From Obrimoposthia wandeli (lineage: Eukaryota): 64,000 nt of DNA. Positions 6,874 through 49,030 of this stretch are shown here, piece by piece (the stretch's first letter is position 1; each line of letters begins with the position of its first letter). The translations under genes and the position numbers were made by a program. Under the pieces are notes generated by a model that was given only the letters and a program-made list of their open reading frames with translations, did not search any database and was not told the DNA's origin. The stretch lies in contig CDROCS010003621.1 of assembly GCA_977020255.1 (NCBI GenBank), forward strand, positions 372,001-436,000. Reading direction: 5' to 3'.

Positions 6874-20864
<13,991 letters not shown>

Positions 20865-25300: not shown

Positions 25301-25359
25301 ATTATTGACTTTGTTCGTCTGATTTTTTCTTATATAAAACCAAAATTACGACAATGTAT

Positions 25360-26046
25360 AACCTTGCGTCAACATGCTAGGAGAACTTAGTTTGTTAACT
25401 GAGACATGGGTACTCTCAGACCCACTCCAAAGTCATGACAAATTTTGTCCGAAAATGTAATTTATTTATCTGAATCTGTGGTAAATTAGAATGTTAATTT
25501 ATAAAAATCGATTTTATATCAGGTACTCTTTTGAGGTACTCTATGATTTAGTTACATACTATTAACGTAAAGTATTAGTTTAGATAATTACATTCATTCA
25601 TTGTTAGAAATGAATATGCAACGGTGATAATCGTTTCTAGAAGCTAAAGAACTCTCGAATGATGACCCTGCAACTATTGAACTATTGAAGACATATTTCC
25701 TGAAAATGATGATGAAGAAGATAATCTACGTGAAGCACAGCATATAAATGATGATTCTGAGAGTAATAATAGCATTGATAGTGACGAAGAATTGCAAGAA
25801 AATCAGTTAGTGTTGATGACAGATAGCTAGAACGATTTGAGCAGTAGTGAAGATGATGATGAAGTAAAAGGTGTTAGACGAGTGGCTGATAATTGGTTTT
25901 CTTCTTTAGCTTTGGTTGATAAGCTGAGAGCCCACCAGACAACGTACTTGGGGACAATGCGGTCAAATAAGCGTGAGCTACTTGCTGCAGTGAAATCATT
26001 GGAAGGTCGTACAAAAGGTGATACTAAGTTCTACTACGAACCCATT
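25360..26046 (+). mobile_element. piggyBac remnant, 5' part (split by the Maverick)
   Basis: Acidic N-terminus and ADNWFSSLAL...YLGTMRSNKRE (piggyBac DNWF/GT.R.NKR motifs); 25394-25423 is an imperfect inverted repeat of 44507-44536. Confidence 0.8.
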
Positions 26047-26421
26047 AGAAGGTGGATGTGTCCGGTCTAATCCACACCCCCCTCCCCCTACTGTCCTTTA
26101 AAACCGTGCATGTGTGTGGAGTAAAATTTCGTGTAGGTGTGTCTCCATTCCACCCAAAGGGGGAAGGAAGGGGGTACCCCCTACTGTCCTTTAAAACCGA
26201 ACATGTGTGTGGAGTGAAAATTCGTGCATGTGTGTGGAGTGAAAATTCGTGTATGTGTGTCTTCATCCCACCCAAAGGGGGAAGGAAGGGGGTACCCCCC
26301 TACTGTCCTTTAAAACCGAACATGTGTGTGGAGTGAAAATTCGTGCATGTGTGTGGAGTGAAAATTCGTGTATGTGTGTCTTCATCCCACCCAAAGGGGA
26401 AAGGAAGGGGGTACCCCCCCC
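26047..26421. repeat. Left TIR plus three tandem units (93, 119 and ~119 bp)
   Basis: Units start CCCCCTACTGTCCTTTAAAACC at 26084, 26177 and 26296 and contain the 25-bp sub-repeat CATGTGTGTGGAGTGAAAATTCGTG. Confidence 0.9.
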
Positions 26422-26687
26422 GCCCACCACATTTTTTTAAAATTTTACCACGAATCTCAAAAGTGGTTAGAGAAGACTACGAGAATCCATATTGACCCCG
26501 GCGGCTTTTCGCAGACGAGATTTCAAATATTACTACTATTTTTAAGAAAGATTTTAGATTAATAAATTACTACATGTTAAATATCTATGTCAGTTTTAGA
26601 ATTTAGAGGAGAAAAATCGGTCAGATCTATATAATTTAGAGGAGAAAAAAACAAAATACGAGACAAAATTATTTTTCAAAATATTTC

Positions 26688-27092
26688 TTAAACATAAAAC
26701 AACATATTGGCTTCACTCAAAGTCCAGAGAGGCTGCATTTTCCCGTCATCAGCAAAATATCCATTGAGACGTATTGAGATATTCCATAGTTCTTCATCTA
26801 GAATTGGAGCAATCAAATATCCTAGATCATCTTTAAAATTCAGACCGGGATCAGTTTCAAGCTAGAAACAATTTCCTTCATATACATAATCAGGATTGTA
26901 AAATCCCAAAATATTTTTCAATTGATCAATATCAGTTGTTGTTAAAATTTCGATGAGATATTTATTCTCCACTTTTGATATTTTCACAGGATTCATAACT
27001 CGTATAATTTGATGCCTCTTTAATATATTACATAGTTTTCCTTTAGAAATTCTTTCTGGATAATAAAAATTTGCTACACATCTCTTATCCAT
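26688..27092 (-). pseudogene. Maverick left-arm gene A, unknown function (one internal TAG at 26862-26864)
   Basis: The frame stays open after the TAG (LETDPGLNFKDDLGYLIAPILDEELWNISIRLNGYFADDGKMQPLWTLSEANMLFYV); a homolog of this part lies at 45579-45818. Confidence 0.7.
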
Positions 27093-27227
27093 TCTAAAAT
27101 AAGGAAATTGATTAAAAACAATGTTTATAAAAAAATACATATGAGATACAAATAAGATACAAATAAAACTGATTATTAAATGAAATAAACATAGTAAAAC
27201 CGATTACAATTTATTACACGCAAAAAG

Positions 27228-27710
27228 TTAAAACATAGAAATATGAGCACGTTCAATTTTCCACATAGGCAACTTTGTTCCCATTTCATCTTTCTTGTAA
27301 CCATAAAGTCGAATTGTTTGAGTCCATTGCTTCTTTTTCGAAAACGCATCAATATCAACATAACTTCCATAGTCATCTAGAAATGCTTCATCGGCTCCTC
27401 GGATATAAAATTCGTTCTTATTGAAAGTAAAATTTGGAACTGCCTTTTCAACTTTCTGTTTAAGATATTGAAAATCAGGTTTTTGAATATTTGATAGATA
27501 GTAGCTGAACTTTCTTCTTTCAATTGTCACAGGATTTACTAAAGCAATCAGTTGAGGCTTCTTCAAGAATCTGACTTTGTTTTTGAAATATTGTTTCACT
27601 TCTTCATACATATCCTTATCCGATTCTTCAAACATTTCTATATCTTCGTCATCGCTTAATACCCGTTGGCTATTGTCCATCGTTGATAATTGTTTTTGAT
27701 ATGAATGCAT
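27228..27710 (-). CDS. Maverick left-arm gene B, unknown function (paralog of gene A)
   Basis: 160-aa ORF with a TATA box upstream (27742-27748, minus); degraded homolog at ~46170-46480; shares a DDxG...W...IRLxGY...PxW motif with gene A. Confidence 0.7.
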   Translation of the reverse strand: MHSYQKQLSTMDNSQRVLSDDEDIEMFEESDKDMYEEVKQYFKNKVRFLKKPQLIALVNPVTIERRKFSYYLSNIQKPDFQYLKQKVEKAVPNFTFNKNEFYIRGADEAFLDDYGSYVDIDAFSKKKQWTQTIRLYGYKKDEMGTKLPMWKIERAHISMF

Positions 27711-27727
27711 TTACTGTGATTTGTCCT

Positions 27728-27907
27728 CCAATGGCGCATTCTTTTATACTAATTTCTAACAAAGACATGAATCTCATTGGTTAATATAACTAAAGCATTG
27801 AATTTGATTGGACTAAATCTATATTCAAAATCAAAATTGATTGGAAGAAATATATCATCCAATTATAATAGGTTTGCAAGATAATTACAAGAAACGTGCT
27901 ATAAAAA
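27728..27907. promoter_or_regulatory. Bidirectional CCAAT/TATA promoter region
   Basis: CCAAT/ATTGG at 27728, 27776, 27807, 27840 and 27859; outward-facing TATAAAA at 27742-27748 (minus) and 27900-27907 (plus). Confidence 0.55.
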
Positions 27908-27959
27908 AGCAGGTTCAGACATATATAAAGAAGATTTTACAGAATACAATTTCAGTCTA

Positions 27960-28459
27960 ATGAAACTCGTAGATATAAATTATAAAGGTAGAACAGAAGA
28001 TGATGTTTCGTACTTACCATTCAATGAATGGAAGCCGAGACAATATGTAGAAAAGTTTGACAATTTCACAGTTGTTATTTTTCCTACAGGTTAGTTTTTT
28101 ATTTTATTTTCATATTGAATTCTTTAGGAAATTGTCGTGTTATGGAATGCAAAATACCAATGCTTAGGTTCAATTTACCATTTGGAATTCAAATCACTGC
28201 AATACAATCAATCACGATTTCGGCTAATCTCGGGAAACAGATAAATCTTTTTAAAACTGCAGAGAAAATGAAAGAAGAATGCATGTTTGAACCAGAAATT
28301 TTCCCTGCTCTCAGTTATTTGAAGTTTAAACCGCTATGTGTAAATATATTTTCCAGTGGTAAAGTTATGATATTGGGATTGAAAAATTTTGATTATCCAA
28401 ACATTGTTGATTTGATTTTAGAAAATATATCTTATTACATCTTGTTATCTTTTCTATAA
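27960..28459 (+). CDS. TATA-binding-protein (TBP)-like protein, 153 aa, join(27960-28089,28128-28459)
   Basis: A 38-nt GT-AG intron joins the frames. Repeat 1: WKPRQY...VIFPTGNCRVM. Repeat 2: IQSITISANLGKQINL...FEPEIFPALSYLKFKPLCVNIFSSGKVMILGLK, versus TBP IQN.V.S.D....I.L...YEPELFPGLIYRM.KP.IVLLIF.SGK.V.TGAK. Confidence 0.85.
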
Positions 28460-28487
28460 ACAAACCCGTTTAAACTTATTGTTTTGA

Positions 28488-28760
28488 ATGAATAATACTA
28501 TAAATAGAGACAATGAAGTGGATCGTCTTGTCGACGAAATATTTTCTGGAAAAATTAGGGGTAAAGAAATTTTATCAGAATTAAAAAATAATGATATAAC
28601 AAGAGATAACATTGAAATATTGGTTAGATCACACGTTATTCGAGAATTTAGAAATCGTACACAAATAAATAAAATTATAGCCAAATATTCATTAATTAAT
28701 TTTAGTATTTCATCTACAATAGCTCTAACATTGTACATTTCAATAAGGAAACTTCTATGA
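28488..28760 (+). CDS. Small Maverick protein with hydrophobic C-terminus, unknown function
   Basis: 90-aa ORF tightly packed between the TBP-like and ATPase genes. Confidence 0.5.
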   Translation: MNNTINRDNEVDRLVDEIFSGKIRGKEILSELKNNDITRDNIEILVRSHVIREFRNRTQINKIIAKYSLINFSISSTIALTLYISIRKLL

Positions 28761-28797
28761 TAATATAAACAATATTAAAAATGAAAGAGTATATGCA

Positions 28798-29445
28798 ATG
28801 GAGCTAAATAATAATGCTGTATTTCAAATAGTTGGCCCTAGTGGAAGTGGAAAGACACATTTCGTCTGTAAATTGTTGCAAAATGAATCTCTTTTCAAAT
28901 CTAGTTTCAAAAATATTTATTGGCATCATGGTGGAGGAGGGGAAAGCGGGTTAACCAAAACAGAAGTTTGCAAGTTGAAGGGTATAAAATTTATTGAAGG
29001 ATTTGATGCAAATTGGTGTGAAAGATTGAAAAAAGAAGATGTAATAATAATTGATGATTTGTATGAGGAGGCTAACAAGGAATCGGACTTTAATAATTTA
29101 TTTACAAAGATTGTAAGACATCGTGAAATAACAGTTATATTTATCACTCAAAATCTGTTTCACCAAGGAGGTCACCATAGAACAAGAAACCTTAATGTAC
29201 ATTATTTAGTTTTATTTAAAAATCCTAGAGATCAAACAGTTGTTGATTTTGTGGCCAGACAGACATTTCCTCAAAATAAGAACTTTCTAGTTGATTCATT
29301 CCACGATGCTGCTAAACAATCACATGGGTATATATTTATTGACATTACACAAGCTTGCCCAGATGATTTACGTGTTTTAACAGACATATTTAATTCTAAG
29401 GGAGTAACTGTTTATAAACAAATAGAGAACAATTATAAAAAATAA
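28798..29445 (+). CDS. Packaging ATPase (A32/FtsK-like)
   Basis: Walker A GPSGSGKT, Walker B IIIDD, and RH and TQN motifs typical of Polinton ATPases. Confidence 0.92.
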   Translation: MELNNNAVFQIVGPSGSGKTHFVCKLLQNESLFKSSFKNIYWHHGGGGESGLTKTEVCKLKGIKFIEGFDANWCERLKKEDVIIIDDLYEEANKESDFNNLFTKIVRHREITVIFITQNLFHQGGHHRTRNLNVHYLVLFKNPRDQTVVDFVARQTFPQNKNFLVDSFHDAAKQSHGYIFIDITQACPDDLRVLTDIFNSKGVTVYKQIENNYKK

Positions 29446-29624
29446 ATTCGCAATGCCTTTTACAAAGTTGATAGTAAAACGTAAAGTAAAATCTAAGAAA
29501 TCAAAAAAAAGAATCATTAAGAAAAAAGAAGTGAAAAAATTAATCAAATCTGTAGTTAAAAATAAAAAAAAACTTAAATGGCTTCGAATATAAACAATAT
29601 TTAAATTGAACCTTTTTTATTAAA

Positions 29625-29953
29625 ATGAAGAAAATACAAAGAAGCATACCCTATTTTAAAGCTTTAGTCAAAGCCTCTTCTAATAAGAGAATGATTATTC
29701 TTAAAGCATTTCCATCTTTTGTTGTAGATGATTTATTGGAAGTTTTGTATAATATAGTTTTGGGTCGAGTAAAAGTTGGAAATCGGAAAAATATATTATA
29801 GAAATATAGAAAAACTCTTCTAGATATTGCTAATGTAAAAAGTAAAAAAGGAAACGAAATATTATTCTTAAACAGAATGGTGGTTTCATAGGGGCTGTTA
29901 TTCCAGTTGTTGCTTCAATTATCAGTAGTATTATAGCTGCGACACGTTCATAA
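29625..29953 (+). pseudogene. Conserved small Polinton virion-core-type protein (stop at 29799 plus frameshift)
   Basis: LLEVLYNIVLGRV...ILKQNGGFIGAVIPVVASII: a QxGG protease-site-like motif followed by a hydrophobic helix. Confidence 0.6.
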
Positions 29954-30039
29954 ACAATTATTTCTAAAATCAGCTAAAGATATGGGTGCTAGCCCTTCTT
30001 TACCTAAATTTAAATTTTCTTTCTATTCAAATTGTTGTA

Positions 30040-31068
30040 ATGTAGAAGATATGGTTCAATCCAAAAGATCCAATTGGCTACACAGGAGTTTCAAAATTAG
30101 CAAAAAGAACAAAACAAAATTACAAGAAAACGCAGAAATGGCTGAGCGACCAGTTAGCCTACAGTCTGAAGAAGCCGATGAGAAGATGGTTTCCAACTAG
30201 AGCTTACAAAACCAGCGGTCCTAATAATTTATGGCAAATGGATTTGATGGAGATGATCCCATATTCTTCCATTAATAAGAGATATCGATATATTTTAACA
30301 TGTATTGGTGTATTTAGCAGGTTTGCTCGTGCAATTCCAGTTAAAGCAAAGTCTTCAATAGCTATGCTTGAAGCCATTAAAGAAATATTAAAAGAGGACA
30401 TTCCACAAAATGTGCAAACTGATTTAGGAAAAGAATTTTATAATAAGCAAGTTCAATCATTATTTAAACAAAATAATATAAATCATTACTCTGTGTTTTC
30501 ACAATACAAAGCAGCAGTAGTAGAAAGATTTAATCGTACTCTAAGAGATCGAATAAAAAAGTATTTCACAAAAGAAGGAAATAAAAAATGGATCCAAGTT
30601 TTACCTAAAATAATACATGCATATAATCACTCTGAACATAGAGGTCTCAAGGGAATGAGACCTGTTGATGTTACTAATAAAAACTCTATGGACATTTGGA
30701 TGAACAGGAATAAAAAAGATAAAATTAAAAAAGCTAAATATAAGAAAAACGAATATGTTCGAATTTCGAAAATTAGCTCTACTCCATTTATTAAAAACTT
30801 TGATCAGAATTGGAGCGATGAAATATTTTGTATAAGTAAAATTGATCAAACGAGTAATCCAATAATGTATACTATTAAAGATGCTGACAATAATATCGTT
30901 CACAGTAAATTTTACGAGCAAGAACTACAAGTAATATCAAATAAACCTAGCGTTTTCCGTATTCAAAAAATATTAAAATCTAAGGGTACAGGTAAACATA
31001 AACAATACTTTGTTAAATGGCATGGTTATTCAGACCCAACTTGGATATCAGCATCTAATATAATATGA
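30040..31068 (+). CDS. Retroviral-like (rve) integrase with C-terminal chromodomain; TAG at codon 2 (30043-30045), open from 30046
   Basis: KIWFNPKDPIGYTG...WLSDQLAYSL N-terminus, WQMDL, QTDLGKEF, VERFNRTL (DDE triad), YFVKWHGY chromodomain. Confidence 0.93.
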
Positions 31069-32126
31069 AGTCTATGTATATGGTTTTACCTAGTAACGGA
31101 TGTCCGAAGACTCAACCAGATAATTACGCTAGTAGCTTTATTATCGATTGGGAAAATCCTATAAATATCCAAGGAGAATGGGAAGCGGCTTTAACCGAAT
31201 TTTCTTTTTATTATTCTCCAATTACTATCAGAAAAAACTCACATATTTCGTTTACAAAAGAAGTTGATCATGAAAAAACAACTAAAGTTGTGATCGGGTT
31301 TGATAGTAAAGGAAAATTCTTTTACAATTGTATAGATAAAGAAGTGAAAGTAATATATGAAAAAAACAAAGTCAGATTTAAAAATCGATCAAAACATTTT
31401 CAACTTATTCAAATTATATTCGAATCTGGAAAAGAAGCTCTTCAATTCGGTTTTGATAGTGGACATGTAGTAGGTATGAAGAGATCTGATATTGTCTCAT
31501 CTAAAATGTTTAAAAATGTTCCTAGTAGAGTGGTAAGAGTGTTGTTAGTTGAAACGAGACCAAAGACTGTAGTGGAACTGAAAATGTTTTCAAAAGATTA
31601 TAAAATAGATAGTGAAGTGAATTTCTGTAAATTAATACAGAAGGAATGTAGTGAATATTTGGATAAATGTGAAACATTAAAAAATGGTAAAATAACGTTT
31701 ACAGTAATGAGCAATATAAAACGAGTTTCATTTGATGATAAACTCGCTAAAAACCTTGGTTTAAACAGAAATACCTTTGAAACCCATACAATAAAAACCA
31801 TAAAAGCTAAAAATAAGGCAAAACTTTTAAATGCTGTTAATCATTTATATATTTATACTAATTTAATAGAACCAACGCTTGTAGGAGGACAGCGAGTTCC
31901 ACTTTTGAGAACAATATGGATATCTAAAAATGAAACTAGAGATGGGGACGCTGTCGGTATGTGTATAGATCAACCAATGTATCTTCCAGTTTCTCTCTTT
32001 TCTATAAACAATATTGAAGTAAATATTAGAGATGATTCCGGACAACTAATAGATTTCACGTACGGGGCCAAGACAAGTTTAACAATACATTTAAGAAAAC
32101 AAAATGGCGAATCCAGCAATAATTGA
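31065..32126 (+). CDS. Minor capsid protein (penton-like)
   Basis: LPSNG.P...DN.ASSF...GEWEAALTEF N-terminus; LYIYTNLIEP..VGG..VPLLR and YLPV...INNIEVNIRDDSG C-terminus. Confidence 0.88.
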   Translation: MKSMYMVLPSNGCPKTQPDNYASSFIIDWENPINIQGEWEAALTEFSFYYSPITIRKNSHISFTKEVDHEKTTKVVIGFDSKGKFFYNCIDKEVKVIYEKNKVRFKNRSKHFQLIQIIFESGKEALQFGFDSGHVVGMKRSDIVSSKMFKNVPSRVVRVLLVETRPKTVVELKMFSKDYKIDSEVNFCKLIQKECSEYLDKCETLKNGKITFTVMSNIKRVSFDDKLAKNLGLNRNTFETHTIKTIKAKNKAKLLNAVNHLYIYTNLIEPTLVGGQRVPLLRTIWISKNETRDGDAVGMCIDQPMYLPVSLFSINNIEVNIRDDSGQLIDFTYGAKTSLTIHLRKQNGESSNN

Positions 32127-32481
32127 AGCTTATAGTCAAAGCCAACAAGGAGGAGAATTACCATATTTTATTGGTAAACAATACGGATCTGGCTGGCTTA
32201 GAACATTAGGTAGATTTGCCTTTCCTCTTTTAAAGAGACTCGGGCGATTTATATCAAAATTAGGAAAGGATTACCTTTCATCTAAGGACAATAAACTAAT
32301 ACCAACTTTTAAGAAGCATGCACTTACAGAACTTGATAATATTTTACCTGACGTTGCTTATTTTATTAGAAAAGGTAAATCAAATAAAAGCCAAGAAGGT
32401 AGTGGATTTAAACGTGAAAAGAAGCAAAAAATTAATATAAACAAACGTAAGAAAGTTGATGGAACAATATTTGCAAAATGA
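32104..32481 (+). CDS. Basic virion core / amphipathic-helix precursor protein
   Basis: QQGG, QYGSG and QEGSG putative protease sites; WLRTLGRFAFPLLKRLG amphipathic helix; basic tail; lies between the penton and MCP genes. Confidence 0.7.
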   Translation: MANPAIIEAYSQSQQGGELPYFIGKQYGSGWLRTLGRFAFPLLKRLGRFISKLGKDYLSSKDNKLIPTFKKHALTELDNILPDVAYFIRKGKSNKSQEGSGFKREKKQKININKRKKVDGTIFAK

Positions 32482-33707
32482 GTTGCGCCAAAACCGAATT
32501 GTGTATTTCTGATAAACCACTGCTACAAGTAGTTGTAGATAATGCTTTTTTTGAAGAAATATTTCTAGTTAACTCAGTTTCAGGAACTACTTTAACCGAT
32601 TTAGAATTTAATATTAATGGTTCCAATAGTGAGTATTTAGATTTGATAAATACTTTGCTTTATGTTCAAATAAAAGTATTAACTCGAGATGATACTAAAT
32701 TAGATGAAAATGCAGATGTAACACCTGTAAAATATCTCTTTAATTCTTTATTTAGTGATGCCATTGTTACTCTTAATAATGTCAAAATTGAAGGTGGAAA
32801 TTCTTCCTATGCTCATAAAGCTTTGATTGAAAGTCTTTTGAATTATAGTACTGATACTCAAAATACTAATTTGGCAACCATTGGTTATGATAAAACTGTT
32901 GCAACTCGCAAAGAATGGATTGCAGGTTCTAAAGCTTACGAAATGTGTGGGTCTTTGAGTTTGAATTTCTTTGAACAACCGAAATATTTAATTCCCGGTG
33001 TTAATGTACATATTCGTTTGAAACGTAATAAATGGAATTTTTCTTTGATAAGCACGGACGTTCTAAAACCTAGACTTGATATTTTGGATGCAAAATTGTA
33101 TGTTCGAAGAGTTAAAACCGAGCAGTCAGTTTTAATGGCACATAATATAGGAATGGAAAAAAACAATGCTTGTTATCCTATTAGAGAAACTAAACTTATA
33201 TCTTATTCTTTAGGTACGGGTACACAAGCTTTTAATAAGGATCAAATTTTTGGTGATGTAAGATTACCGAAATTCATTTTAATTTCTTTTCAAAAAACTG
33301 CAAAGTTTCTAGGAAATTATACGACAGATGCAACTCAATTTGACAATCTTAGTGTAGGTTCAGTGACACTTTCAAGAAATACTGATTATCGCGAAACATA
33401 TAAAACAGATTTCGAAGGTGACGCTTATGATTTGGCTTATACCCAATCTATTATTCGGAATTTGGGTCAACTAGATAAAAATATAAACAATGGTATTTCT
33501 TTCACTGACTTTAAAAGCAGCTGCCCGTTCTTCACATTTGTTTTGGCACCAAACTTTGATATAAACCAATGTCAACTACCAAAGGATGGAAATTTACGAC
33601 TAGAAATTAAGTTCAATGCAGCTTTAACACATCCTACTACGGTGTTTATTTACGGAGTATTTGATTCGGAAATACAAATCAATAAAAACAGAACTGTCAT
33701 ATTATAG
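32478..33707 (+). CDS. Major capsid protein (double jelly-roll)
   Basis: 409 aa; KTELC...P..Q, LEFNI.G....YLDL.NTLLYV, PKYLIPGV...IRLKRN, LYVRRV, G.LRLEIKF..AL motifs of the Polinton MCP. Confidence 0.92.
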   Translation: MSCAKTELCISDKPLLQVVVDNAFFEEIFLVNSVSGTTLTDLEFNINGSNSEYLDLINTLLYVQIKVLTRDDTKLDENADVTPVKYLFNSLFSDAIVTLNNVKIEGGNSSYAHKALIESLLNYSTDTQNTNLATIGYDKTVATRKEWIAGSKAYEMCGSLSLNFFEQPKYLIPGVNVHIRLKRNKWNFSLISTDVLKPRLDILDAKLYVRRVKTEQSVLMAHNIGMEKNNACYPIRETKLISYSLGTGTQAFNKDQIFGDVRLPKFILISFQKTAKFLGNYTTDATQFDNLSVGSVTLSRNTDYRETYKTDFEGDAYDLAYTQSIIRNLGQLDKNINNGISFTDFKSSCPFFTFVLAPNFDINQCQLPKDGNLRLEIKFNAALTHPTTVFIYGVFDSEIQINKNRTVIL

Positions 33708-33708
33708 A

Positions 33709-34089
33709 ATGGAGTAAGACATATTTTAAATTTATATTTATTAATTTTTATTTAGTTCAAAACAAGTAAAAGAATCAGCAGAGAAGGTCCTAGGTGATAA
33801 ATTCAATGGAGTTTATCCTATTGATATGATTCCATTTTTTCAATCTGGAGGTCATATTATCAATACTCATACTTCGAATTTACCGGGAGAACATTGGATA
33901 GCTATTTATGTTAGAGAGTGGACAATACATGTATTTGATCCACTTGCAATGTATTATCCACACAAACTTGTTTCGACTATTCTAAAAGGACGAAGAAGAG
34001 TATTTTACAACAAGATACAATATCAGGATCCTGCGACGAGAAACTGTGGACATTTATGTATTTTATGGTTATCGTTGCAAAACAATTAG
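33709..34089 (+). CDS. Adenain-like cysteine protease, 112 aa, join(33709-33713,33756-34089)
   Basis: A 5-nt first exon (ATGGA) and a 42-nt GTAAG...TTTAG intron give MDSKQV...FNGVYPIDMIP; catalytic H (GEHW), D (FDPL), Q and C (QDPATRNCG). Confidence 0.88.
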
Positions 34090-34347
34090 TGTGTTATAAA
34101 AATAAAAATTTTAAATGTTTTATTTTGAATTATTTTTAAATCTCTAAAAATATAAGGGTAAAATAATAAAAGACATAAGACAATTTTTTTTAATACATTT
34201 ATTAATCACAACATCACAATGAGATATGTCAAAGATAAGGTCAAACCTAAAAAAGTATTGAAATAACAAATAAGTTAGAGTCTAGGTGCCATAGATATCT
34301 AAAATTTTAAAAAACTAAACTAAAAAAATCAAAAAATGAAAAACCGT

Positions 34348-37300
34348 TTAAATTCTGAAGTGTCCATAAGCCAGGCTAGCGTTCTTTTCTACCCAAAAGC
34401 GCTTGTCGTCATTACTACTCAAAGCGATCTTTGTTGATTTATGGGAATACAGTTGATGGGCTCTTGAAATAAATCTAGTTTGCTCAACGCTTTCAATACA
34501 CCCAGTATCATAAACTTTCCGGTAGGCCTCATGTGTAAGATTGTTTCTTCCCACACTCTTTGCTCTCATTGAACATGTATTATTAGATGCATGTAAACTG
34601 TAGCATTTAGGGCGTAGGAAAATACAATCATCATACGAAACCTGTCCCTCGCTTTCATCCTTAAATTTCCCGATAATGTCCTTTAAACTCATAGAGTGTA
34701 GAGGATGGTTAGCGGGATATTTATGGGTATCTAGTAAGTTGTCCCTAAACATTGCTGGTAATAATTGATTATTTAAACTAACATTCCTACATTCTAAAAA
34801 GAAAGAGTCAGTGTCCCCAGCTGCGATTTTGATCTCACAATTAAATTTTTGTCGGTATTTCTCCAATTCTATGTATTGAAGCTCATACATTCTGAGTTTA
34901 GAAATGTCTAAAACCGTTTGACCTATATAACTCGGTCGATCGAGACAAATACTCTGTTTTCCTAATAACACTGCTACCAAGTCATCTGCAATTGTAAAAC
35001 TACGCTTGAAGTTGTACTTGCTAGTATATGTTATTAGTTTACGCTCATCATTGCAAAACCGTAGACAAATACGTTTCCGCAAGTCCTCTACAGTTTTTCC
35101 AAAGAGACTATTACTTTTTAACTTGTAAAAATCTCGATCGAATTTGCTAGTGGCCAAATTACGTTTTCTTGAATTCTTCTCAATATAGTCTTTAAACACA
35201 AAGTTTTGACTGAAGCTTATAGCCCGATGAATTCGAGTAACTTTCGCTCCCAACTTTAAGTAGAATTGAAGAAGCCGCCAATGCACAACATAATTCAACT
35301 TGTCTTCATGGGTTAACAATAATTTCTTAACCTTTGAATTAGGTGGGCATTGATGAACAGGCGCTACTGGAAGATCATCTAATTTATCATGCACATTGGG
35401 AGGGATTTTTATGTCCACCTCAACCAAATAGCCGACGTCGGATGAAACTGTATCAACAGTAGCCAAATCTGTCATCAACTTATTCAACTGATCCACATCA
35501 TAAACCCACTTAAAGTTGGCATGAGGTAGAGGTTGAGTAAGCGCCCACCCATACAAATTATTAATATCGATGTACAGAATCTCCGTGGATTGATTTTTGA
35601 CAACATGATGTTTGTTGACAAAAGTCATTCCACCGCGTATACCATAATCATACATTTGATACATCGCGGGATCTTGCAGTAACTCGATATTAATTTTAAG
35701 AGTTTTTATTGCTGTTGCCCATGAAAGACCAGGTAAACTAAAGAAATGCATGGGATCTAGCCCATCTTCTGCTAAAGACTTTACACGAAAGGACTCAAAA
35801 ACATCAGCTAAAAGATAAATGTCTAACTTCATATAATAAAGCATATATTCGAGAAGATTTCGACAATTATTCACCCAAAATGTACGGGCCTCATTATAGT
35901 CTTGAAGACTTACACCCTCAAATTCAGTTATGGGTGGGATTTCAGTTGTATTTTCTAAATCTGCGAAAGTTTTTGCAAATTTAAACGGAAAAATCCCCTT
36001 ATCGTTAACCGAAGCTGGAAACACTGACTGTGTAATTGACCATGCATTTAAAGATGCTGTTAAATTTTTTAAAGACCCGCTCAAAAACTGCACAGAATCT
36101 ATGAATCTTAAACTGCAGAATTCAGTATATGCAGTTAAAGATAAATATTTCTCTGAAGTTTGAGGTATACATGAAATTTCCCAAGAGCTTAATGTACCCA
36201 ACGCGTATTTAAGTATATGATGCAAATCATATCCTTTGAGGTTATGAAACACGATGGGAATGCGTGGTTTTTTAGGGAGACGACGGCCAAGGATACAAAG
36301 GTTGCACGCCGCTCCCAAGTATCGCCCCGTAACATGATCGTGATCTCTGACTAACTTAGACTGGGTTCCACACAAATAACATAATCTACAAGAATTAAAA
36401 TTAACCCAGTCTATGCCTGTCATGATCATTGCTTGATGAGCATTGAGATCATACCACGGTTTGACAATTGTTGTTCCTAATTCCTCTAATTTTAACATAA
36501 AATCTAAAATACATTTTGGACCGGAAAATTTATGATACTGGGTAATATTGGGGCCTAAGAATAGTAGTCCTGCCGAAGCCGGTAGGTGAATACTCTCATA
36601 CTGGTCGTGTAATGCTAAAATTGACTCAAAATCTGCATACACCCTGAATTCCACGGGTATGCATTTTGCCCAATCCCTGAATTTTAAATCCTTATCCTTA
36701 GGCATGGTGTATAACGTATTGTAATTAGGATTCAGTGAACATAATGTCAGATGTTTGATGTAAGAGAGCTCAGATCGGAACCCATGCAAACATCTATGAC
36801 ACCACTTACACCTTATCCTAACCGGTAAGGCTCCATTATCTAAATTTAGAAGACGATCTAAATTGGGAATTGCAGCATAATGGAATTTTTTATTATGTTC
36901 GAGCAAAATTAAGTTGACCTGAGTCCCCTCATTTTTACTCCTATAAATTACATCTACAAAAGGATTTTTAACATTTTCTTCATCTGTTACATTAACTGGG
37001 ATATCAGTATTGTATTTGAATACATTAATACTCAATTTATTAAGGTGTTAAAATCTTGATATCGCAGTTAATTTAACTGGAAAGTCTATTCCATGATACT
37101 GCAATTCATTTAAAAAAGGGGTATATTTACTGACACGCTCTCTATGCTCAGTAATTACATCCCCTTTGAGGATGGCCAACACGCTATACAGAAAGCAAAG
37201 GTTATCACTGTTTTGTACGTTAACAATGGAACGTGAAAGTTGAAGAGATCTAGGTGAAGGAATGTATGAACTCCCCGAAAGATATATCATGTCAGTGAAC

Positions 37301-38950
37301 TTTGTTAGAACAAAGCTAACATCGTGAATTCTAACTAGAGTCCATCCACTACTTAACTCGCTATAATTAGCAATTTTTTCATCCAGGTTTCTTCCAATTT
37401 CAGTTACAAAATTATCATAAAAAACAGTTGCTTTATGTGAAATTACCCAAGTTTTAGTTTCCTCATTGACATTTTTAAACTGCACTGTTGCGCAAAATTG
37501 AACCTTAGCCTGTCCTAATTTAGTCACTTCTGATTTTAAAAGATTTTCAATATTTGAATCTACACCTACGTTTAATAAAATTTCATTTCCTAATGGCACC
37601 TTAACTATAACATATTTATTATTTAGGTGATACTCTATAGTAGCACCGTTTTCTCTACGTTTTTTGGGTGGGACCTTATTAAGAAATTGGCCTCGCGTCT
37701 TTCTTCCGTTTGTCGCTGACAAACCTCCCCCTAATTGAACAGGAAGACAACTATTTATATTAATAGTTGAGACAATCGCAGCTGAGGTTGAAGGTGCTGC
37801 TATTGGTGATGCTGCCGATGTTGAGGCAATTGCAGCTGATGTGGAAGGTGCTGCTATTGTTGATGCTGCCGATGTTGAGGCAATCGTAGCTAATGTTGAA
37901 GGGGCTACTGTAGCAGGTGCTACCGATGTTGAGGCAATTGCAGCTCGTGTTGTAGGTGAGGCAACTAATGTTGGTTTCGCAGATGATGCGCTTGTAGACG
38001 CACTGGTCACTAGATCATCAGTAGCTGATGTCATTGAAGCGACTGTTGTGGACGTCGATGATGCATGTGCTGAAATTAATATATTAAAAAAAAAATATTA
38101 AAAAAAAAAAACCTCTAAGGCGTGCTAACATCGATGTAGGCACTCGAGATGGGGGAGACATAGCTGTCCTATCAGATGACGGCTGTATCATGGTACTTCC
38201 TGAATAAAAAAAATATATATATATATATAATAAAAAATAAAATATATAATTTTAAAAAATAATAATAAAAAATACCTAATGAAGGCAATCCAAGTTGAGC
38301 TGGAATGTAGTCCTCTTCATTGATGGAATCCATCCAGCTGTCGTCCGTTGACTCGACGAAATCGGATTCCTCGATGGTTTCCAACCAATAGTTATCGCTC
38401 CACTGAGGCTGCTCTATCTCGAAATCTGACTGGGTGATATTTTCCATCCAGTCATTGTTTGAGAATTGGGTTGCTGGTGCCAACTCCTCAAAATCTTCTT
38501 CGGAGATCTCGTTCATCCACTCATTGTTAGACATTTGAGTGGATGAGGCAGCAGCAGAATCAGGAGCCGGGAGAGAAGGACCAATGGCAGGACCATAAAC
38601 TGGTAGACTGACTGCCACTGGAATTGGAGCAGGAGCTGGAGCGGCCTGCGAATCGCGCACCAATTGCACGATATCCCTCTTCTTGTTGTTGGCCGTGAAA
38701 CACGATAGGTGAGCTCGATGTTCACCGAAGAAGTCTCGAAACTCCTTCTCCTCCATTGTTCTGCAGAATGGGCAGACGAAGAAGTGAAGCCCGCGAGACT
38801 TTGTCCGATAGTAGGCGGACATTGTCTCCATGCAGGACTCTCCTCCATGCGGAGCCGAAGCACCACAATATGCTGGAAACAGGATACAAGTAATCTGAAA
38901 TAATAAATATTAATAAGGAAATAATAAATATAAATTCTTACCATAGGCAT
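34348..38950 (-). CDS. Protein-primed DNA polymerase B with long spliced N-terminal extension; join(38950-38942,38894-38276,38199-38113,38069-34348); one in-frame TAA at 37048-37050
   Basis: YADFES, RDHDH.TG, FHNLKGYDLH, YIDINNLYG, KLKSNSLFGK and GDTDS motifs. Three GT-AG introns (47, 76 and 43 nt) join all frames into 4437 nt. F*HLNKLSINVF corresponds to the usual FE..N.ISINVF. Confidence 0.9.
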
Positions 38951-39181
38951 TATTTCAAATTGTCGGGGATTTAAATGAAGAAGGTGTTTGCTTATATACT
39001 AAAATTTATGCACACATGCTCTTTTCCTATTGGATTAAAAAATTGAATTTATTCCTCCACTGAGAAGGATTGTTTATCTGTTATTGGTTAAAAAAAATAT
39101 TTTTTATTCCTCCAATCAAAAGGCTTATTTGTAAATAATTGTAAAATTTTAATAATGAATTTCTCTAATTAGAAGAATTGT

Positions 39182-39670
39182 TTATCTACATGTCAAGTAA
39201 TAATAAGAAAGACTTAAACATTTTTTATATGCGCAATGGTCACCATGATTACGATATGGACAGCAAATATTTCGTGGAATTTTTAATAGATGATCACGCG
39301 AAATATTTAAAGTATTCAACCTCAATTTAGGAAAATATTTTTTTAAAGTCTTATATTTTTTGCCATCCATTTCATCTAAAACATAAAAAATTCCATTTTC
39401 AATATCAAAATTAGATGTTATTGTATCGAAAATACATATTTCACAAAAAGCCTTATGCCCATCTTTCCATTTTAATAAATGAAAGTAATTAGTTAGATAT
39501 AAATTAGTAAATTTTTTCTTATAATCTAAATTTTTAAACTGGATATCTATTTGAAATATGAAATGCAAAGGATGAAAAACGTCGCATACATCCATAATAC
39601 ATAATTCTTTTATAATATAATCACCATTTTTGTTAATGAAAGCCTCAAAATCTATGATATATTCCTGCAT
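39182..39670 (-). CDS. DEDD/DnaQ-fold (MAEL-like) Polinton accessory protein
   Basis: IDFEAF...YIIKEL N-terminal motif, H.L.W.DG centre, C-terminal CPYRNHGDHCA Cys/His cluster. Confidence 0.55.
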   Translation of the reverse strand: MQEYIIDFEAFINKNGDYIIKELCIMDVCDVFHPLHFIFQIDIQFKNLDYKKKFTNLYLTNYFHLLKWKDGHKAFCEICIFDTITSNFDIENGIFYVLDEMDGKKYKTLKKYFPKLRLNTLNISRDHLLKIPRNICCPYRNHGDHCAYKKCLSLSYYYLTCR

Positions 39671-39987
39671 AATTATCTAAATTTGTATCAAATCCCGTTG
39701 TTTATAACGAAAAAAATTATTAAAATAACAAAGTACTTTCATGATAAGATTGGTAAAAATTGTCAATTATCCTAAGAATATTAAAATAAATTATATTAAA
39801 AGTTTTTTTATATTCTTCCATTAAATCTGGAGATAATTTTATGTATAATTTATTTCAAATTTTATTATCCATTTTACAAAAACATTATATATAAATTTGT
39901 TTATTTTTAGTATGCTTATGTAAAATATTTAGACAATTATGTAAAATATTTAGACAATTATATAACCTAATCAATAAAGACGAAAAA

Positions 39988-40314
39988 TTAATCAAAAAAT
40001 TTACCTAATTTACCCTCTTCCGGTTTAATCTGGAGGATCCTTTTTCTTGCTGCTCGCCGAACATCCTCCATCTCTTCTCTTTTTTTTTCATCCACCTTCC
40101 TTTTTTCCAATTCGATCTTCTTGTTCCACTCCACGACCCGACGTCGTTCTGCTAGCCGCCTGTCCTGAATCTCCACCCGACGATTCCACTCGGTCGCGAC
40201 AGCAGTATACAAATTCTGGTTGAGGATCCTCTTTCGTAAGTCTCCTTTCTTCTCATTTATTCTTATGTTTGCCTCGATCTTCGTCACCAAACTTTGCAAT
40301 TTAATGAATTCCAT
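39988..40314 (-). CDS. Charged coiled-coil protein, unknown function
   Basis: 108-aa ORF with TATA box upstream; degraded homolog at 50640-50920 (ILN.NLY..VA). Confidence 0.6.
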   Translation of the reverse strand: MEFIKLQSLVTKIEANIRINEKKGDLRKRILNQNLYTAVATEWNRRVEIQDRRLAERRRVVEWNKKIELEKRKVDEKKREEMEDVRRAARKRILQIKPEEGKLGKFFD

Positions 40315-40564
40315 TTTTTAATTATGAAGATGTTAATAAATTTGAACCTATATATATAAATTTAAGATATTTTTTAATACAATTAAATGAAAGTTTAATA
40401 AATCTATAACTAATCATTGCATTTATTTTTAAACCTAAAAATTTTTCAATGATTCCTTATTTATCCAATCACAGGTGAATAAATTATTATTTTTTTTTCA
40501 TGTTGATCTTTTAATAAACTTAAAGATGAGATTTAAATAAATAATAACAATAAAACATATGAAA

Positions 40565-42669
40565 CTAATGTTTATAAATTATATTTTTAAACATCTTTAC
40601 GAAGTCATCATTGGGATCATCCGGGTCGTAATCCCTCCGACAAAGTTTTATAGGAGAAAGCGGTACTGGTTCCTTCTTCTTTGGCCGGCTCAGTTTCTTT
40701 TTCGGCTTCACCGGTTGCTTTGTAACAATTGTCCTTCCCTCGGGTTTTGGCAATAGTTGCCGCAACGTTTTGGGAGGAGGTGCTGCCGATGTTGATTTCC
40801 CCGACATTGAAGCAGTAGCCTTCCTCTTTCGCGGAGCTTTCTTCTGTTTCTCCTCCTTCTCACGCTGAAGCTGGCGTGAGACGGCATCCTGTTGCCCACG
40901 CGAATCTGGAAGCATTGCCGGTGTATCCAGTTCCGCCCGGAATTCGTCCAAACCAGCTTCATCCCAGGCTCTCTTTAAGTTCTGGCTGGTTGTTGGACGA
41001 GAAGAAGCAGTCTCATGCAGACGTGGTTGACTCGAGGGCGGACTTATCTCGATCGGCGAGACTGGGATCCTCTCGTATAAAATTGGACCGTCGTCCACAG
41101 GAGATGGGAGAATCTCCTGCTGGCCAATCACCGCCTCAGAATAATGGCCAATTGAGGTGCGAATTTTTCTCGAGCGCTTCGTCTTTTTCACCTCTGCCCG
41201 CTTTGTCCTTTTCTTAGGGAAAGGAGTAACTTCTCCCCAAGTCTCCTCAATTATCCGGACAGGTTCCTGCAGAAAAACATTAATAAAATTTCAAATAAAT
41301 TTTATTTAATTAAAAAAATATTTAAAATACCAAAAAATTACCTCAATACTTGTATACGGAAGTTTTTCCTGCCGCTCAATCGTTACTTCGCTCGATTTGA
41401 GCAGACAGGATTTCGCCTTTCTAAGACGCCTCGTCTTCCGTACAGCAGCCTGCCTCGTTCGCTTCTGCGGGAAAGGAGAAATTTTGGCCCATGTCTCCTC
41501 AGTTAATTGTATTGGTTCCTGCAACAAAAAACATTAATAAAATTTAAACATATAAATAATTTACCTCGATGACGGGCAGATTAGCCTGTTTCACCAACTT
41601 GGCCTTCTTCCGATGGACCGTATTGGTTTTGACCCGATGGCATCGAGGTTTCTTAATCGCCGCTTGCTTCCTATCGACGGGTAGTCTCCGAGTTGCCTCC
41701 TCCCAAATTTCCTCCACCAATTCGGCTTCCTATTTGAATAATTAAATAAATTTACTAATTTATAATAATATACCTCAATTTTATCCGGAGTCGGTTGGTA
41801 TCTCTGCTCACTCCTGGGATCATCCTGGCTACATTGACTCGCCAAGTACTGCGGTTCAATCAGCCTCTCAATCGTGGTCACTGACGGTGCCAAATCCAGT
41901 TGCAGTTTCTGAAAATAAAATTAAAAAACATTTTAAATAAATGATGTCTAACCTCATTCGTCGCCTTTATTCTCCTAACAGGACGTATCGGAGATTGTGG
42001 CCTTCTGAATGGATCAGGCAGTGCATTGTCGGGTATCGGAGTCGGATTTGTAGAGGGAGTGATACCATCCCATTCGTCGGTGAACAGATGCCACTCATCT
42101 TCATCCAATTCTGCAACCATGGACTCGTTGGCTCCTGGGGCTCCGATACTTGGCTGTATCCATTCCTCCTCCCCATCCGACGGAACGTCATCAGTAAACA
42201 GCTCCTCGTCTGAGTATGGTGCCAGTATTATCTCCGGTTGAGACAGCGGGATCAATTTCCATGGGCATTTGATTGCCGCCTCAAAATTGTCGAAGAGATT
42301 GGATCTCCTTGCTGCTACTGCTGAAGTTGCCGGACGACTGGCTTCTGTGTTCAGCCTGGGAGTACAGTCTTCCCAATTCTCTATCGAATCCTGACTAGTC
42401 AGATCGATATATTGGGATCTCTGTACCCCACATCGCACGCTCATTGGTTCTTCTCTTGGAGTTGAGCTGGCCAATGGTGCTTCTTCTTGTAACAGCTCCG
42501 CTCTTGCTGCTGCTTCTCCTTCGTCTCCTTCGCTCACCACCGACGAGTCTTGACTAAGTAAGTCAATGTACTGCGCCTGAGGTGGCGTTCGCTGCTGTAC
42601 TGGAGATAGATCCCCATACAGCTGAACCTCCGTCTCTTCGTCTAGGTCAACGTTGTTGTAGAATGGCAT
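40565..42669 (-). CDS. 631-aa acidic/basic disordered protein with SIM-like motifs; join(42669-41953,41908-41774,41729-41565,41518-41342,41266-40565)
   Basis: Four phase-0 GT-AG introns (44, 44, 46 and 75 nt); every exon length is a multiple of 3; no internal stops; QYIDLLSQDS and QYIDLTSQDS motifs; TATA box at ~42716-42724 (minus). Confidence 0.85.
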
Positions 42670-43080
42670 TCTTGATTTTGATTTTGATTTATGAAAAATA
42701 ATGAAAAGAGGTTTCCTTATATACAATAAACAATAGACTAGCCCTCTTTTGTCCTCCAATGAGAGCGGGTTATTCAAATAATTTATTTGAAAATCAGTAG
42801 GATTTTCTCAATTTTTTAACTATGTTTGAATGCTGGAATGTCATTGGATAAAACATATTTTATTCGAAAATATAACTATTTTATTCGAAAATATAACTAT
42901 TTTCTTAAGATTTTGTTGATTAAGTTTAACGTCCAATGAAAACGTATTATTCAAAAAATTTATGGTATTTTCTTAAATGTTGTTGATGTTTGAATACATG
43001 TATATCTTTGGATTTAAAATAGTAATATTTTCTTGACTGTACATGTTTGGATGGTATAAAAAAATTCATGAACTCATTTA

Positions 43081-43211
43081 AGGTCAAGTTAAGGTCATGA
43101 CCTTATGAGGTCATTACAGGCCATCATGAGGTCAAGGTCATTTAAGGTCATTATGAGGTCAAGGGTACAAAGTTGTCTAGGTCATCATGAGGTCAATATC
43201 ATTTAAGGTCA
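43081..43211. promoter_or_regulatory. Array of ten AGGTCA nuclear-receptor-type half-sites
   Basis: AGGTCA at 43081, 43092, 43108, 43129, 43135, 43145, 43156, 43179, 43190 and 43206; palindrome AGGTCATGACCT at 43092-43103. Confidence 0.75.
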
Positions 43212-43376
43212 TGATGACTAATTTTGATGACTCACCAAATAAAAATGAAAATTATTTCGAATTTATGTAGTTGATTATTTAAAATTTTTTGCGATATGTG
43301 TCTTTCTTATAAATTCTTATAAATTTTTTTTACGACCTTGTATATATGTATGGATATAAATTCTTATAAGGAAAAT

Positions 43377-43456
43377 TTTTTCGCGCCCGCAGGGCGTGAA
43401 AATATTTTCTCGCGTATAATTTTTCGCGCCCACCGTTCGCGAATTTTTTTTCTCGC
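43377..43456. promoter_or_regulatory. Cluster of E2F-type sites
   Basis: TTTCGCGC at 43379 and 43422, plus GGCGTGAAAA, TTTCTCGCG and TTCGCGAA variants in an otherwise CpG-poor background. Confidence 0.6.
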
Positions 43457-43639
43457 AAGCCTGTATGTATTACTCGTTGATCCACCGCGGGCCCGGAGGG
43501 CACGCTTTGGCCAATTTGACGGCCTCTCAGGACCTTAATCAAAATTTAGGGAGCATTATGAGATTTTTAAATTTAAAGGGTGTTATGGAGTTAATTATTT
43601 TTTTGAGTGTTTGGGAGGGGGGGGTAGAAATATTTTCTA

Positions 43640-43733
43640 CACACCTACACGAAATTTCACTCCACACACATGCACGGTTTTAAAGGACAAGGGGGAGGGG
43701 GTGTGTGGATTAGACCGGACACATCCACCTACT
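43640..43733. repeat. Right TIR of the Maverick
   Basis: Reverse complement of 26047-~26141 with a few mismatches and indels. Confidence 0.95.
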
Positions 43734-44550
43734 CCCATTGGTACTGTTCTGGTGTCATTCTGGGACAAGAAAAAGAAACCTGTGTTAGTGATTGACAGCT
43801 TTGTCAGAGTTGGGGAAGTCGATCCCGTTTCCAACAAAGCTACATCCATTATGCATTTAAACAAAAACCAAGTCGAGAGTAGACGTTATGGATAAAATGG
43901 TGCGTCATTATTCCACAAAGAGGAAATGCTGATGTTGGCCTGTATCTTTATTTTTCCATCTGCTAGATGTCAAATTGGTAAACTCTTTTCGGTTGATGGC
44001 TCAATTTTTCAACATTGATGCAGAGCAGAGGAAGACTTATCATTCAGAATTCATGCTGGATGTTGTATACGGTTTAGTGAAAGATTTGGCAGAGCACAGA
44101 GCAACAACGTACAGAAACGCCCCCTAAAAGGTCAAAATAGCCTGGTAGTTGTGTGACTATGATGCGGCACAACAGCCAAGGGAAAATGAACAAGACTGTA
44201 TTGCAATAAAACGTCAATGTGCTCCATGCTACGTGGAAATCGAAAGGATAGAAAAACGTCTCACAACTGCAACTAGAATCTTAAATTTAATTGAACTGTG
44301 AACTGAACATTTTGTAAATCTTTTGAAGTATTTGATCATGTATATAAAAGATTGTTGTGTTCGTTGACGTTTTTGAAAATTCCTTTACATTAGTTAAGTA
44401 CTTTAATTAATTGTTTTCCTATATATACACTTTATATAATAAATCATTTTCTATTTAACCTAAAATTAAACAGGTTATAGTTGATTTTAATATGTTATAA
44501 TCAATGGGTCTCAGAGTTAACATAACACAGTTAACGCTTAGAATGTTATG
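43734..44550 (+). mobile_element. piggyBac remnant, 3' part
   Basis: PIGTVLVSFWDKKKKPVLVIDS continues the frame of KFYYEPI across the TSD; VDVMDKMVRHYSTKR and WPVSLFFHLLDV match piggyBac GVD.LDQM...Y...R.T.RWP. Confidence 0.85.
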
Positions 44551-47500: not shown

Positions 47501-49030
47501 CAAGGTGGAGAATTACCATATTTTGTCGGTTAACAATATGGATCCGGCTGGCTCACAACATCAGATAGATTTGCTTTTCCTCTTTCGAAGAGTCTCGAGT
47601 GATTTATATCAAAATTAGGAAAGAACTACTTTTCCTCTATAGATAAAAAATTAATACCAACTTTTAAGAAGCATGTACTTAATGATTTTGATAATGTTCT
47701 ACATGATGCTGCTAAGTTAATTAGAAAAGTAAATCAAGTAAAACCAAGAAGGTAGAAGTTTTAAACGTAAACAGAAGCAAAATGTTGATAACAAACGTAA
47801 GAAAGTTAAAGAAACAATATTTGAAAAATGAGTTGCGCCAAAACTGAATTGTGTATTTTTGATAAACCTCTTCCGCAAGTAGTTGTAGATAATGCTTCCT
47901 TTGGAGGAATATTTTTAGTTAAATCAGTTTCAGAAACCACCTTAGCCGATTTAAAATTTAATATTAATAGTTCCAATAGTGATTATTTAGAATTGAAGGA
48001 TACTTTGCTTTATGTTCAACTAAATATAACAAATTGTAATGGTACTAATTTAAAGGAAAATGCCGATGTAACACTTGTTAATGATTTCTTTAAATAATTA
48101 TAAGATAAGAACACTTAATAATGTTAAAATTAAAAGTTGGAATTCTTCCTGTGCTCATAAAACTTTGATTGAAAATCTATTGAATTATAGTAGTGATATT
48201 CAAAATACTAATTTGGCAACAACTTAGCATAGATCCATAATTATTTTATAATATAATCTCCATCTATATTAATGAAAGCCTCAAAAAGTATAAAATATTT
48301 ATGTATAATTATCCAAATAAATCCTAAATGCCTTTGTTTATAATAATTGAAAATAAAAACGAGTAATAAAAATTTATTAATATGAAAATAATATACAATA
48401 TTCATTTTTCTCGTTAATGTTGCTGTATATTTTCATTTCTCCTATGAATATTAAAATAAATTATATAAATGTTGGGGTTTCTATATGAAACTGTGTTCTA
48501 ATATAGATCCTCTGTATGGACGGCCCCAACGTGAGTTCTATAGAAGCAGGACTTGTAGATGGTTGTGGCCTACTTAATGTTATGCTTGCCTGTCTCAATT
48601 CTTATCTGAAGGTTTGTTGTTTCTTAATCTGAAGGGTTAATAACAACGCTTGTAGTTGTAGGAAATCGTTTATTTCTAAGCACACTAAATTAACACGAAA
48701 ATTAACACGTCTAAGTACGTTCTGAAAAGACTTCTATAAGCCTCTACACAAGTGGGGATGAACCACGTATCGATTTTAAAGTTAGGGTTGGTTGATCGCT
48801 AGAGTCTTTACTCTAATTGTGGCACGGTTAAATTGATGGGTTTTCGGAGAGCTATTTGCTCTAAAATAGGGATTGAGTTTAGAGCTGGTTGCTCAAAATT
48901 ATGGTTAGTTTAGATTGATAGAATATAGAAAATGTACTGAGATAACTTAATTTGTTACTCTTCTTTTAAATTGGAATCAACTTTATACTTTGATCGAATA
49001 TCGAATTACAAAGGGAATACCTCAACTTTC

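Follow-up and report, generated by a model that had tools for sequence, protein, structure and literature searches.

Vertebrate Mavericks, also called Polintons, are described as carrying intronless open reading frames (ORFs), with no introns seen in genes belonging to intact elements, and surveys take uninterrupted core ORFs as the sign that an element is intact (Barreat and Katzourakis 2021, PMC8097293). For nematode Mavericks, too, the core genes are called intronless, and intron-bearing cargo is placed near a terminal repeat (Widen et al., bioRxiv 10.1101/2022.07.12.499685). Here we analyse a Maverick in a stretch of 64,000 nucleotides (nt) of Obrimoposthia wandeli DNA (assembly GCA_977020255.1, contig CDROCS010003621.1, positions 372,001 to 436,000; hereafter the window). 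In this element nine short intron-like segments lie in four genes, which encode a TBP-like protein, an adenain-type protease, the protein-primed DNA polymerase PolB and a product that we call SIM. The first-pass annotation of the window had taken the segments for spliceosomal introns and had remarked that annotations normally show Polinton genes as intronless ORFs, a remark that, for core genes, agrees with both sources.

In the light of these sources, the element resembles vertebrate Mavericks in its terminal inverted repeats, in a 6-base-pair (bp) target duplication and in its genes for PolB, integrase, ATPase, protease and putative capsid proteins, and differs from them in the predicted introns of PolB and protease and in carrying a TBP-like gene (PMC8097293). 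With nematode Mavericks it shares a GC-rich, poorly conserved region next to a terminal repeat that holds an intron-bearing gene (10.1101/2022.07.12.499685). Because a GC-rich gene with introns in that place has already been described there, the unusual part of our element is the five predicted introns in PolB, protease and TBP-like genes, which also set it apart from the nematode elements. Spliceosomal-type introns within polinton-like elements are known from dinoflagellates, where they are introners, mobile and present in many copies, which for the most part entered after integration and lie in coding regions in about 25% of cases (Gozashti and Corbett-Detig, PMC11957031; PMC12166617). Unlike those introners, the segments described here are not repetitive; they are fixed in their family and passed on together with the element.

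Group I introns are reported in polinton-like viruses (PMC12220804). The accessible parts of that paper and of PMC11296320, 10.1101/2023.08.22.554363, PMC8502044, 10.64898/2026.10.13.758929, 10.1101/2024.03.25.586562, 10.1101/2024.01.15.575659, PMC11131425, PMC5803895, PMC6431247 and 10.1101/809541 mention no spliceosomal introns in Polinton core genes. We found no published account of spliceosomal introns that are fixed in the core genes of Mavericks, in a search whose scope left out Repbase, supplements, Pritham 2007 and Kapitonov and Jurka 2006, where Polintons annotated with exons may be found.

Nine intron-like segments and their sister copies

All nine segments are present at the lengths first proposed: 38 nt in the TBP-like gene, 42 nt in the protease gene, 47, 76 and 43 nt in PolB, and 44, 44, 46 and 75 nt in SIM. 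Each starts with GT and ends with AG, and their guanine-plus-cytosine (GC) content of 4-16% bears out the claim of AT-richness. By comparison, PolB exons 2 and 3 and the SIM exons have about 50% GC; the exons of the TBP-like and protease genes and the last exon of PolB have 30-37%. When the exons are translated separately, the phases agree at every junction. The expected stop-free joined frame is found in every exon apart from PolB exon 4, which in the window copy contains an in-frame stop at 37048-37050. Because this stop occurs in only 1 of 29 sister copies, we read it as decay of the window copy that lies outside the splice model. Read-through of the TBP-like, protease, SIM 3 and SIM 4 introns meets a stop inside the segment, and read-through of the others shifts the frame.

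The segments also show two traits of U2-type introns. Their GT and AG ends come with a T-rich 3′ tract, and their removal joins homologous coding sequence in phase, directly for the TBP-like gene, indirectly for PolB introns 2 and 3, and by way of positions shared across families for protease and SIM. A candidate branch-point motif, TTAAT, lies 7-16 nt upstream of the 3′ end in six of the eight introns examined, an uncontrolled count in AT-rich sequence.

For each site we compared 29 other copies of the family, chosen as the best-scoring matches to an intron-bearing query. This family, which we call family A, is very abundant in the 1.35-Gb host genome: a protease search returned at least 150 matches at 98% identity or more. 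Both flanks were recovered in 25 of the 29 copies for PolB intron 1, in 28 for PolB introns 2 and 3 and in all 29 for the other six sites, and the segment is present in each such copy. Since they are shared by 25-29 of 29 copies, the segments belong to the mobile element and predate its insertion. With the nine sites pooled, GT is kept in 250 of 255 intron copies and AG in the same proportion (250/255). Lengths vary irrespective of frame, from 63 to 90 nt for PolB intron 2 (all three residues modulo 3), 26 to 47 nt for PolB intron 1, 75 to 79 nt for SIM intron 4 and 37 to 39 nt for the TBP-like intron. No presence/absence polymorphism was found among the 29 copies at any site.

Variants common to at least two copies gave ratios of nonsynonymous to synonymous polymorphism (pN/pS) of 0.26, 0.31 and 0.17 for SIM exons 1-3, 0.29 for PolB exon 2 (13 copies) and 0.37 for TBP exon 2, values that are biased towards 1, as the window copy's own mutations count as shared. 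Singleton variants gave pN/pS from 0.27 to 3.55.

At the DNA level, the observation of nine segments is confirmed. Phase agreement, fixed GT and AG ends around variable interiors, intronless collinear homologs, positions kept across diverged families and signs of purifying selection in most exon frames together argue for spliceosomal introns inside a Maverick, as first proposed. We consider it very probable that the nine segments are ordinary U2-type introns, common to the copies of a recently multiplied family and removed by the nuclear spliceosome of the host.

Evidence from the four genes

The TBP-like gene (27960-28459, plus strand) offers the most direct comparison. Its second exon matches PF00352 (E = 3.9e-12), and its two exons are separated by a phase 1 intron at 28090-28127 that is found in all 29 copies. 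In five of six homologs, a single ORF covers both exons, and where exon 1 ends and exon 2 begins the two matches lie one residue apart; the other homolog starts just upstream of the intron site. The same genome holds a second high-copy Maverick family (family B; L181-L182, L184-L185, L187-L188) with a different gene order, in which PolB stands head to head with an intronless TBP-like gene. At 29 of 30 fetched loci the family-B gene gives one uninterrupted tblastn block across the site, and the 30th locus belongs to family A and carries an imprecise deletion. As all relatives seen, both family B and metagenomic, are without the intron, its gain in family A is the simpler reading.

The PolB gene (34348-38950, minus strand) has four predicted exons. 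Intron 1 (38895-38941, phase 0) follows codon 3 and is GT-AG in all 25 copies in which it was recovered. Intron 2 (38200-38275, phase 1) keeps GT in 26 and AG in 27 of its 28 copies, and intron 3 (38070-38112, phase 1) is GT-AG and 43-45 nt long in all 28. In a diverged copy (L171) all three positions are kept and the intron sequences are different. Over its whole length PolB is about 50% identical to proteins that bear PF03175; a Pfam search with the window PolB ORF itself gave no match to PF03175.

The Cys/His-rich domain encoded by exon 2 aligns to residues 3-75 of a single-ORF PolB, P0007 (E = 6e-13), and exon 4 matches this protein from residue 127 onward (E = 5e-53). Because these two exons match successive parts of one ORF, the pieces would form a single protein. 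Other single-ORF PolB homologs open with the same Cys/His-rich domain, and in family B the domain and the linker behind it form one continuous frame. On the predicted junctions, PolB introns 2 and 3 must be removed to yield this single-ORF architecture, and the catalytic core lies in one 3.7-kb exon. Family B also has, at 28 of 29 loci, a GTAAGT...AG segment of 53-79 nt whose end lies only a few bases upstream of the start codon of PolB, near the place of family-A intron 1. The linker itself is repetitive: the second half of exon 2 (38276-38594, minus strand) is an acidic repeat with spaced Trp residues, and exon 4 opens with a Ser/Thr/Ala repeat of 54-nt period (D7) between the N-terminal domain and the conserved part.

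Eight close metagenomic relatives of PolB include the 5′ region; several of the contigs stem from a single assembly and so do not count as independent. Four are single ORFs (L199, L200, L203, L206) and four (L201, L202, L222, L237) contain AT-rich GT-AG segments of 42-52 nt, which in L201 cut the conserved region at sites other than those of the window introns. On a quick tree of 65 rows, of which 23 were labelled and from which proteins with short alignments were excluded, the intron label needs three changes, two of them forced by well-supported branches, and the single-ORF L203 is nested among intron-bearing rows. This suggests that PolB introns may have been gained repeatedly and sometimes lost, a history that is unproven.

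The protease gene (33709-34089, plus strand; weak match to PF00770, E = 0.032) has a first exon of five coding nucleotides, followed by an intron at 33714-33755 in phase 2 of codon 2 that is present in 29 of 29 copies. If it is left unspliced, the first Met of exon 2 comes only at residue 24. The family-B protease, at 57% protein identity, has a GT-AG segment of 36-38 nt at the same codon (ATG plus two bases) and then an in-frame stop in 23 of 25 copies. Three of four distant metagenomic proteases (25-34% identity) have an in-frame Met start and no intron, and one is ambiguous. Judged from these alignments, the predicted intron is older than the split of families A and B and is not universal. 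A protease search also returned one protein, P0127, that starts about 14 residues into the exon-2 region, which fits a missed intron as judged from the protein only. The N-terminus is also missing from the predicted proteins P0012, P0014, P0032 and P0044.

SIM is a GC-rich gene of five predicted exons beside the right terminal repeat (40565-42669, minus strand). Its four introns, at 41909-41952, 41730-41773, 41519-41564 and 41267-41341, are all in phase 0 and are found in all 29 copies. A 48-nt GT-AG segment at 24473-24520 in the sibling region near 24475 matches the position of SIM intron 1; at the similar insert reported near 24655 this decayed sibling lacks an intact donor. In a set of 30 loci at about 70% identity, some of which overlap the same element, the intron 1 position is kept in 22, at 41-49 nt, with GT-AG ends in 20. 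Introns 2 and 3 hold the same positions in several diverged loci, and a fourth intron was not found in the diverged subfamilies. Repeats make up exons 3 and 4 and open exon 5: exon 4 and the exon 5 start are 48% identical (E = 2e-19), and exon 3 is more distant. Given these exon repeats and the similar ends of introns 3 and 4, intron 4 most likely stems from tandem duplication of a phase 0 exon together with its intron. A comparable exon-intron unit is repeated in L202. Exons 1 and 5 have no Pfam match and exon 1 has no useful Atlas match (score 0.76). The YIDL, acidic-Trp and basic repeats of the predicted protein may point to a nuclear regulator.

Rival readings and a proposed mechanism

For SIM taken by itself, the gene could be host cargo that was captured with its introns already in place, an origin that we think possible if doubtful and that would leave the reading of the other five segments as spliceosomal introns untouched. 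SIM is GC-rich, fast-evolving and intron-bearing and adjoins the terminal repeat, like the nematode cargo (bioRxiv 10.1101/2022.07.12.499685), and it has no match in the three mapped family-B elements. Nonetheless, Pfam and Atlas searches found no host-gene or Pfam homolog, and the gene is conserved across diverged subfamilies (about 70%), with its place upstream of PolB and the gene order unchanged in L171, L186 and L190-L191. Intron 4, moreover, most likely arose within the element.

That the introns are introner copies inserted into the element, as in dinoflagellates, appears very unlikely. Beyond that precedent (PMC11957031, PMC12166617), similarity among the introns is the evidence for it: in a comparison of eight element introns (SIM intron 4 left out) and two host introns, which was not genome-wide, 5 of 45 pairs scored above shuffles at p < 0.05, two of them at the floor of 0.005. 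This weak signal is explicable by common splice signals and T-rich tails. The eight introns share no body sequence, and terminal inverted repeats are absent from them (3-7 of 12 positions match); the lack of presence/absence polymorphism among the sister copies also argues against introners. We rejected an introner origin, as the introns compared do not form a multi-copy family with terminal repeats.

Several points weigh against reading the segments as introns. The exon-intron junctions are predictions from DNA. The first exons of PolB (nine coding nt) and of the protease are too short to be testable by homology, and PolB intron 2 of the window copy holds no in-frame stop. Since the sister copies are top matches to an intron-bearing query, intronless copies of the family could have been missed. 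The selection signal is weak or absent in SIM exon 4 (pN/pS 0.75), in the 5′ part of PolB exon 4 (0.61), in PolB exon 3 (0.53, five variants) and in TBP exon 1, where shared variants comprise no silent and five replacement changes. Many forks of the quick PolB tree are open. Thirty representatives of the PolB exon-2 domain are proteins of 79-559 amino acids, a size range that fits missed introns and short contigs or, possibly, a stand-alone product of this domain.

The predicted junctions, the decay of the window copy elsewhere and these many short proteins could also be taken to mean that the segments stay unspliced, as AT-rich spacers or insertions due to decay, with the exons as separate small ORFs or pseudogene pieces. 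We find this hardly credible. Segments shared so widely among the sister copies are older than the insertion, the TBP-like gene would be cut inside a conserved fold that is continuous in its homologs, the protease would have no Met ahead of residue 24 of exon 2, and GT and AG stay fixed while the interiors drift across diverged families. Self-splicing introns can be dismissed by reasoning from the short lengths and GT-AG ends, and an assembly artefact because the segments recur on dozens of contigs.

If the segments are spliceosomal introns, their persistence would follow from the way the element copies itself. A Maverick would replicate from DNA to DNA with its own PolB, so that an intron once gained would be inherited and not purged by reverse transcription. 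Gains would have occurred at different times and lineage by lineage: the protease intron before the split of families A and B, the TBP-like intron and PolB introns 2 and 3 in the family-A lineage, and SIM intron 4 through the exon duplication. Two high-copy families of unlike intron content in one genome, with one apparent gain by exon duplication, would make a tractable system for the study of intron gain. Surveys that ask for unbroken core ORFs would cut intron-bearing families short or class them as fossils, and in databases the polymerases of such families would be missing their N-terminal domain.

Dependence on splicing would further imply that a replication gene and a capsid-module gene are expressed in the nucleus, probably transcribed by host RNA polymerase II (Pol II) as in adenoviruses. 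Because the PolB and protease introns would need the nuclear spliceosome, they argue against the view that this Maverick lineage lives like a virophage in the cytoplasmic factory of a giant virus. Adenoviruses, which have a related polymerase and protease, are expressed by host Pol II with splicing, and the first codons of their polymerase and pTP come from a tiny upstream exon. Their introns are long leader introns, with alternative acceptors on shared transcripts; unlike these, the segments here resemble host-style mini-introns of 38-76 nt within single genes.

A broader idea, which we regard as speculative and rather unlikely, is that a clade of TBP-carrying Mavericks is becoming a group of spliced, adenovirus-style nuclear viruses through repeated gain of host-type mini-introns in core genes. 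The old codon-2 intron could then gate the late protease behind splicing, and retention of PolB intron 2 may decide whether a short zinc-finger/acidic regulator or the full polymerase is made. Were this true, the rule of intronless core genes would in part reflect annotation by ORFs only, and many elements now taken for dead would be intact.

The rest of the element and the host surroundings

The element is an insertion of 17.7 kb at 26047-43733, delimited by inverted ends and a 6-bp target duplication. Its left terminal inverted repeat (26047-26142, plus strand; inverted pairs I3 and I12, direct family D9) is followed by subterminal repeats of about 118 bp up to 26418 and pairs at 90% identity with the right one (43639-43733, minus strand). 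The target-site duplication occupies 26041-26046 and 43734-43739 (both plus strand) with the same six bases. Together with the protein-primed PolB, a retroviral-type integrase, an A32 ATPase and the adenain-type protease (weak PF00770 match), these are hallmarks of Mavericks.

Among the remaining genes, the ATPase and both putative capsid genes are single ORFs. On the plus strand follow a small ORF (28488-28760), the A32-type packaging ATPase (28798-29445; PF04665, E = 3.3e-6, above the cut-off), an rve integrase with chromodomain (30046-31068; PF00665 above the cut-off at E = 2.8e-11, PF00385 below it), a putative minor capsid protein (31065-32126), a small basic ORF (32104-32481) and, downstream of it, a putative major capsid protein of 409 amino acids (32478-33707). 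The integrase of the window copy is broken at its 5′ end and its frame opens without a Met start, which together with the PolB stop marks this copy as decayed. Both capsid names are inferred, that of the minor protein from position and matches in related elements; the major one is conserved in family B and metagenomic elements. The two ORFs have the size and place expected of Maverick jelly-roll capsid genes, and Pfam gave no match for the minor and no informative match for the major protein. On the minus strand lie ORFs of unassigned function at 26862-27203 (part of it searched without a Pfam match), 27228-27710 (with a counterpart in family B) and 39182-39676 (conserved in family B), and a small charged ORF at 39988-40317.

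The flanks at 25830-26040 and 43740-43900 resemble in their motifs pieces of a piggyBac-like transposase, so that the Maverick seems to have inserted into the remnant of another transposon. Decayed pieces of related Maverick subfamilies lie at 1-800, 23400-25350, 44600-48400 and 50600-51660, with 64-90% identity either to stretches of the element or among themselves.

The first-pass annotation had described the element introns as much shorter than the DOT1L introns of the host in the window (147-6042 nt). This contrast is refuted: the shortest host introns measure 41-50 nt, and the element introns fall within this smallest class. Host GT-AG introns of 41, 42, 50 and 59 nt exist, the first three of them AT-rich like those of the element. 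The 42- and 50-nt ones, at 5047-5088 and 5217-5266, lie upstream of the DOT1 exons. Searches that could have tied the two short 5′ host exons to DOT1L gave no significant match; we tentatively assign these exons to DOT1L by position and likeness. In three other host genes, ten introns span 41-410 nt, including one of 41 nt and 10% GC near the start of PRP8. Among the host introns measured, internal ones exceed the 5′ mini-introns in both length and GC content.

A DOT1L exon in the window matches human DOT1L (E = 1e-24), which makes an animal genome probable. Two look-alike tandem exons of this host gene (11417-11523 and 11799-11905), each flanked by AG and GT, are possibly mutually exclusive. 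The window also contains a tandem array at 49002-49542 with six copies of a 77-nt unit, and a reverse transcriptase ORF (60419-62854, PF00078) followed by a simple C/A-rich repeat tract. Elsewhere in the same genome there are 63 PF00562 matches, and loci L317-L328 hold many uninterrupted genes for the second RNA polymerase subunit. Some, such as L323, read as bacterial rpoB; others, such as L317, are intronless, of eukaryote or virus type and present in several copies. These genes may be contamination, retrocopies or integrated large-virus DNA.

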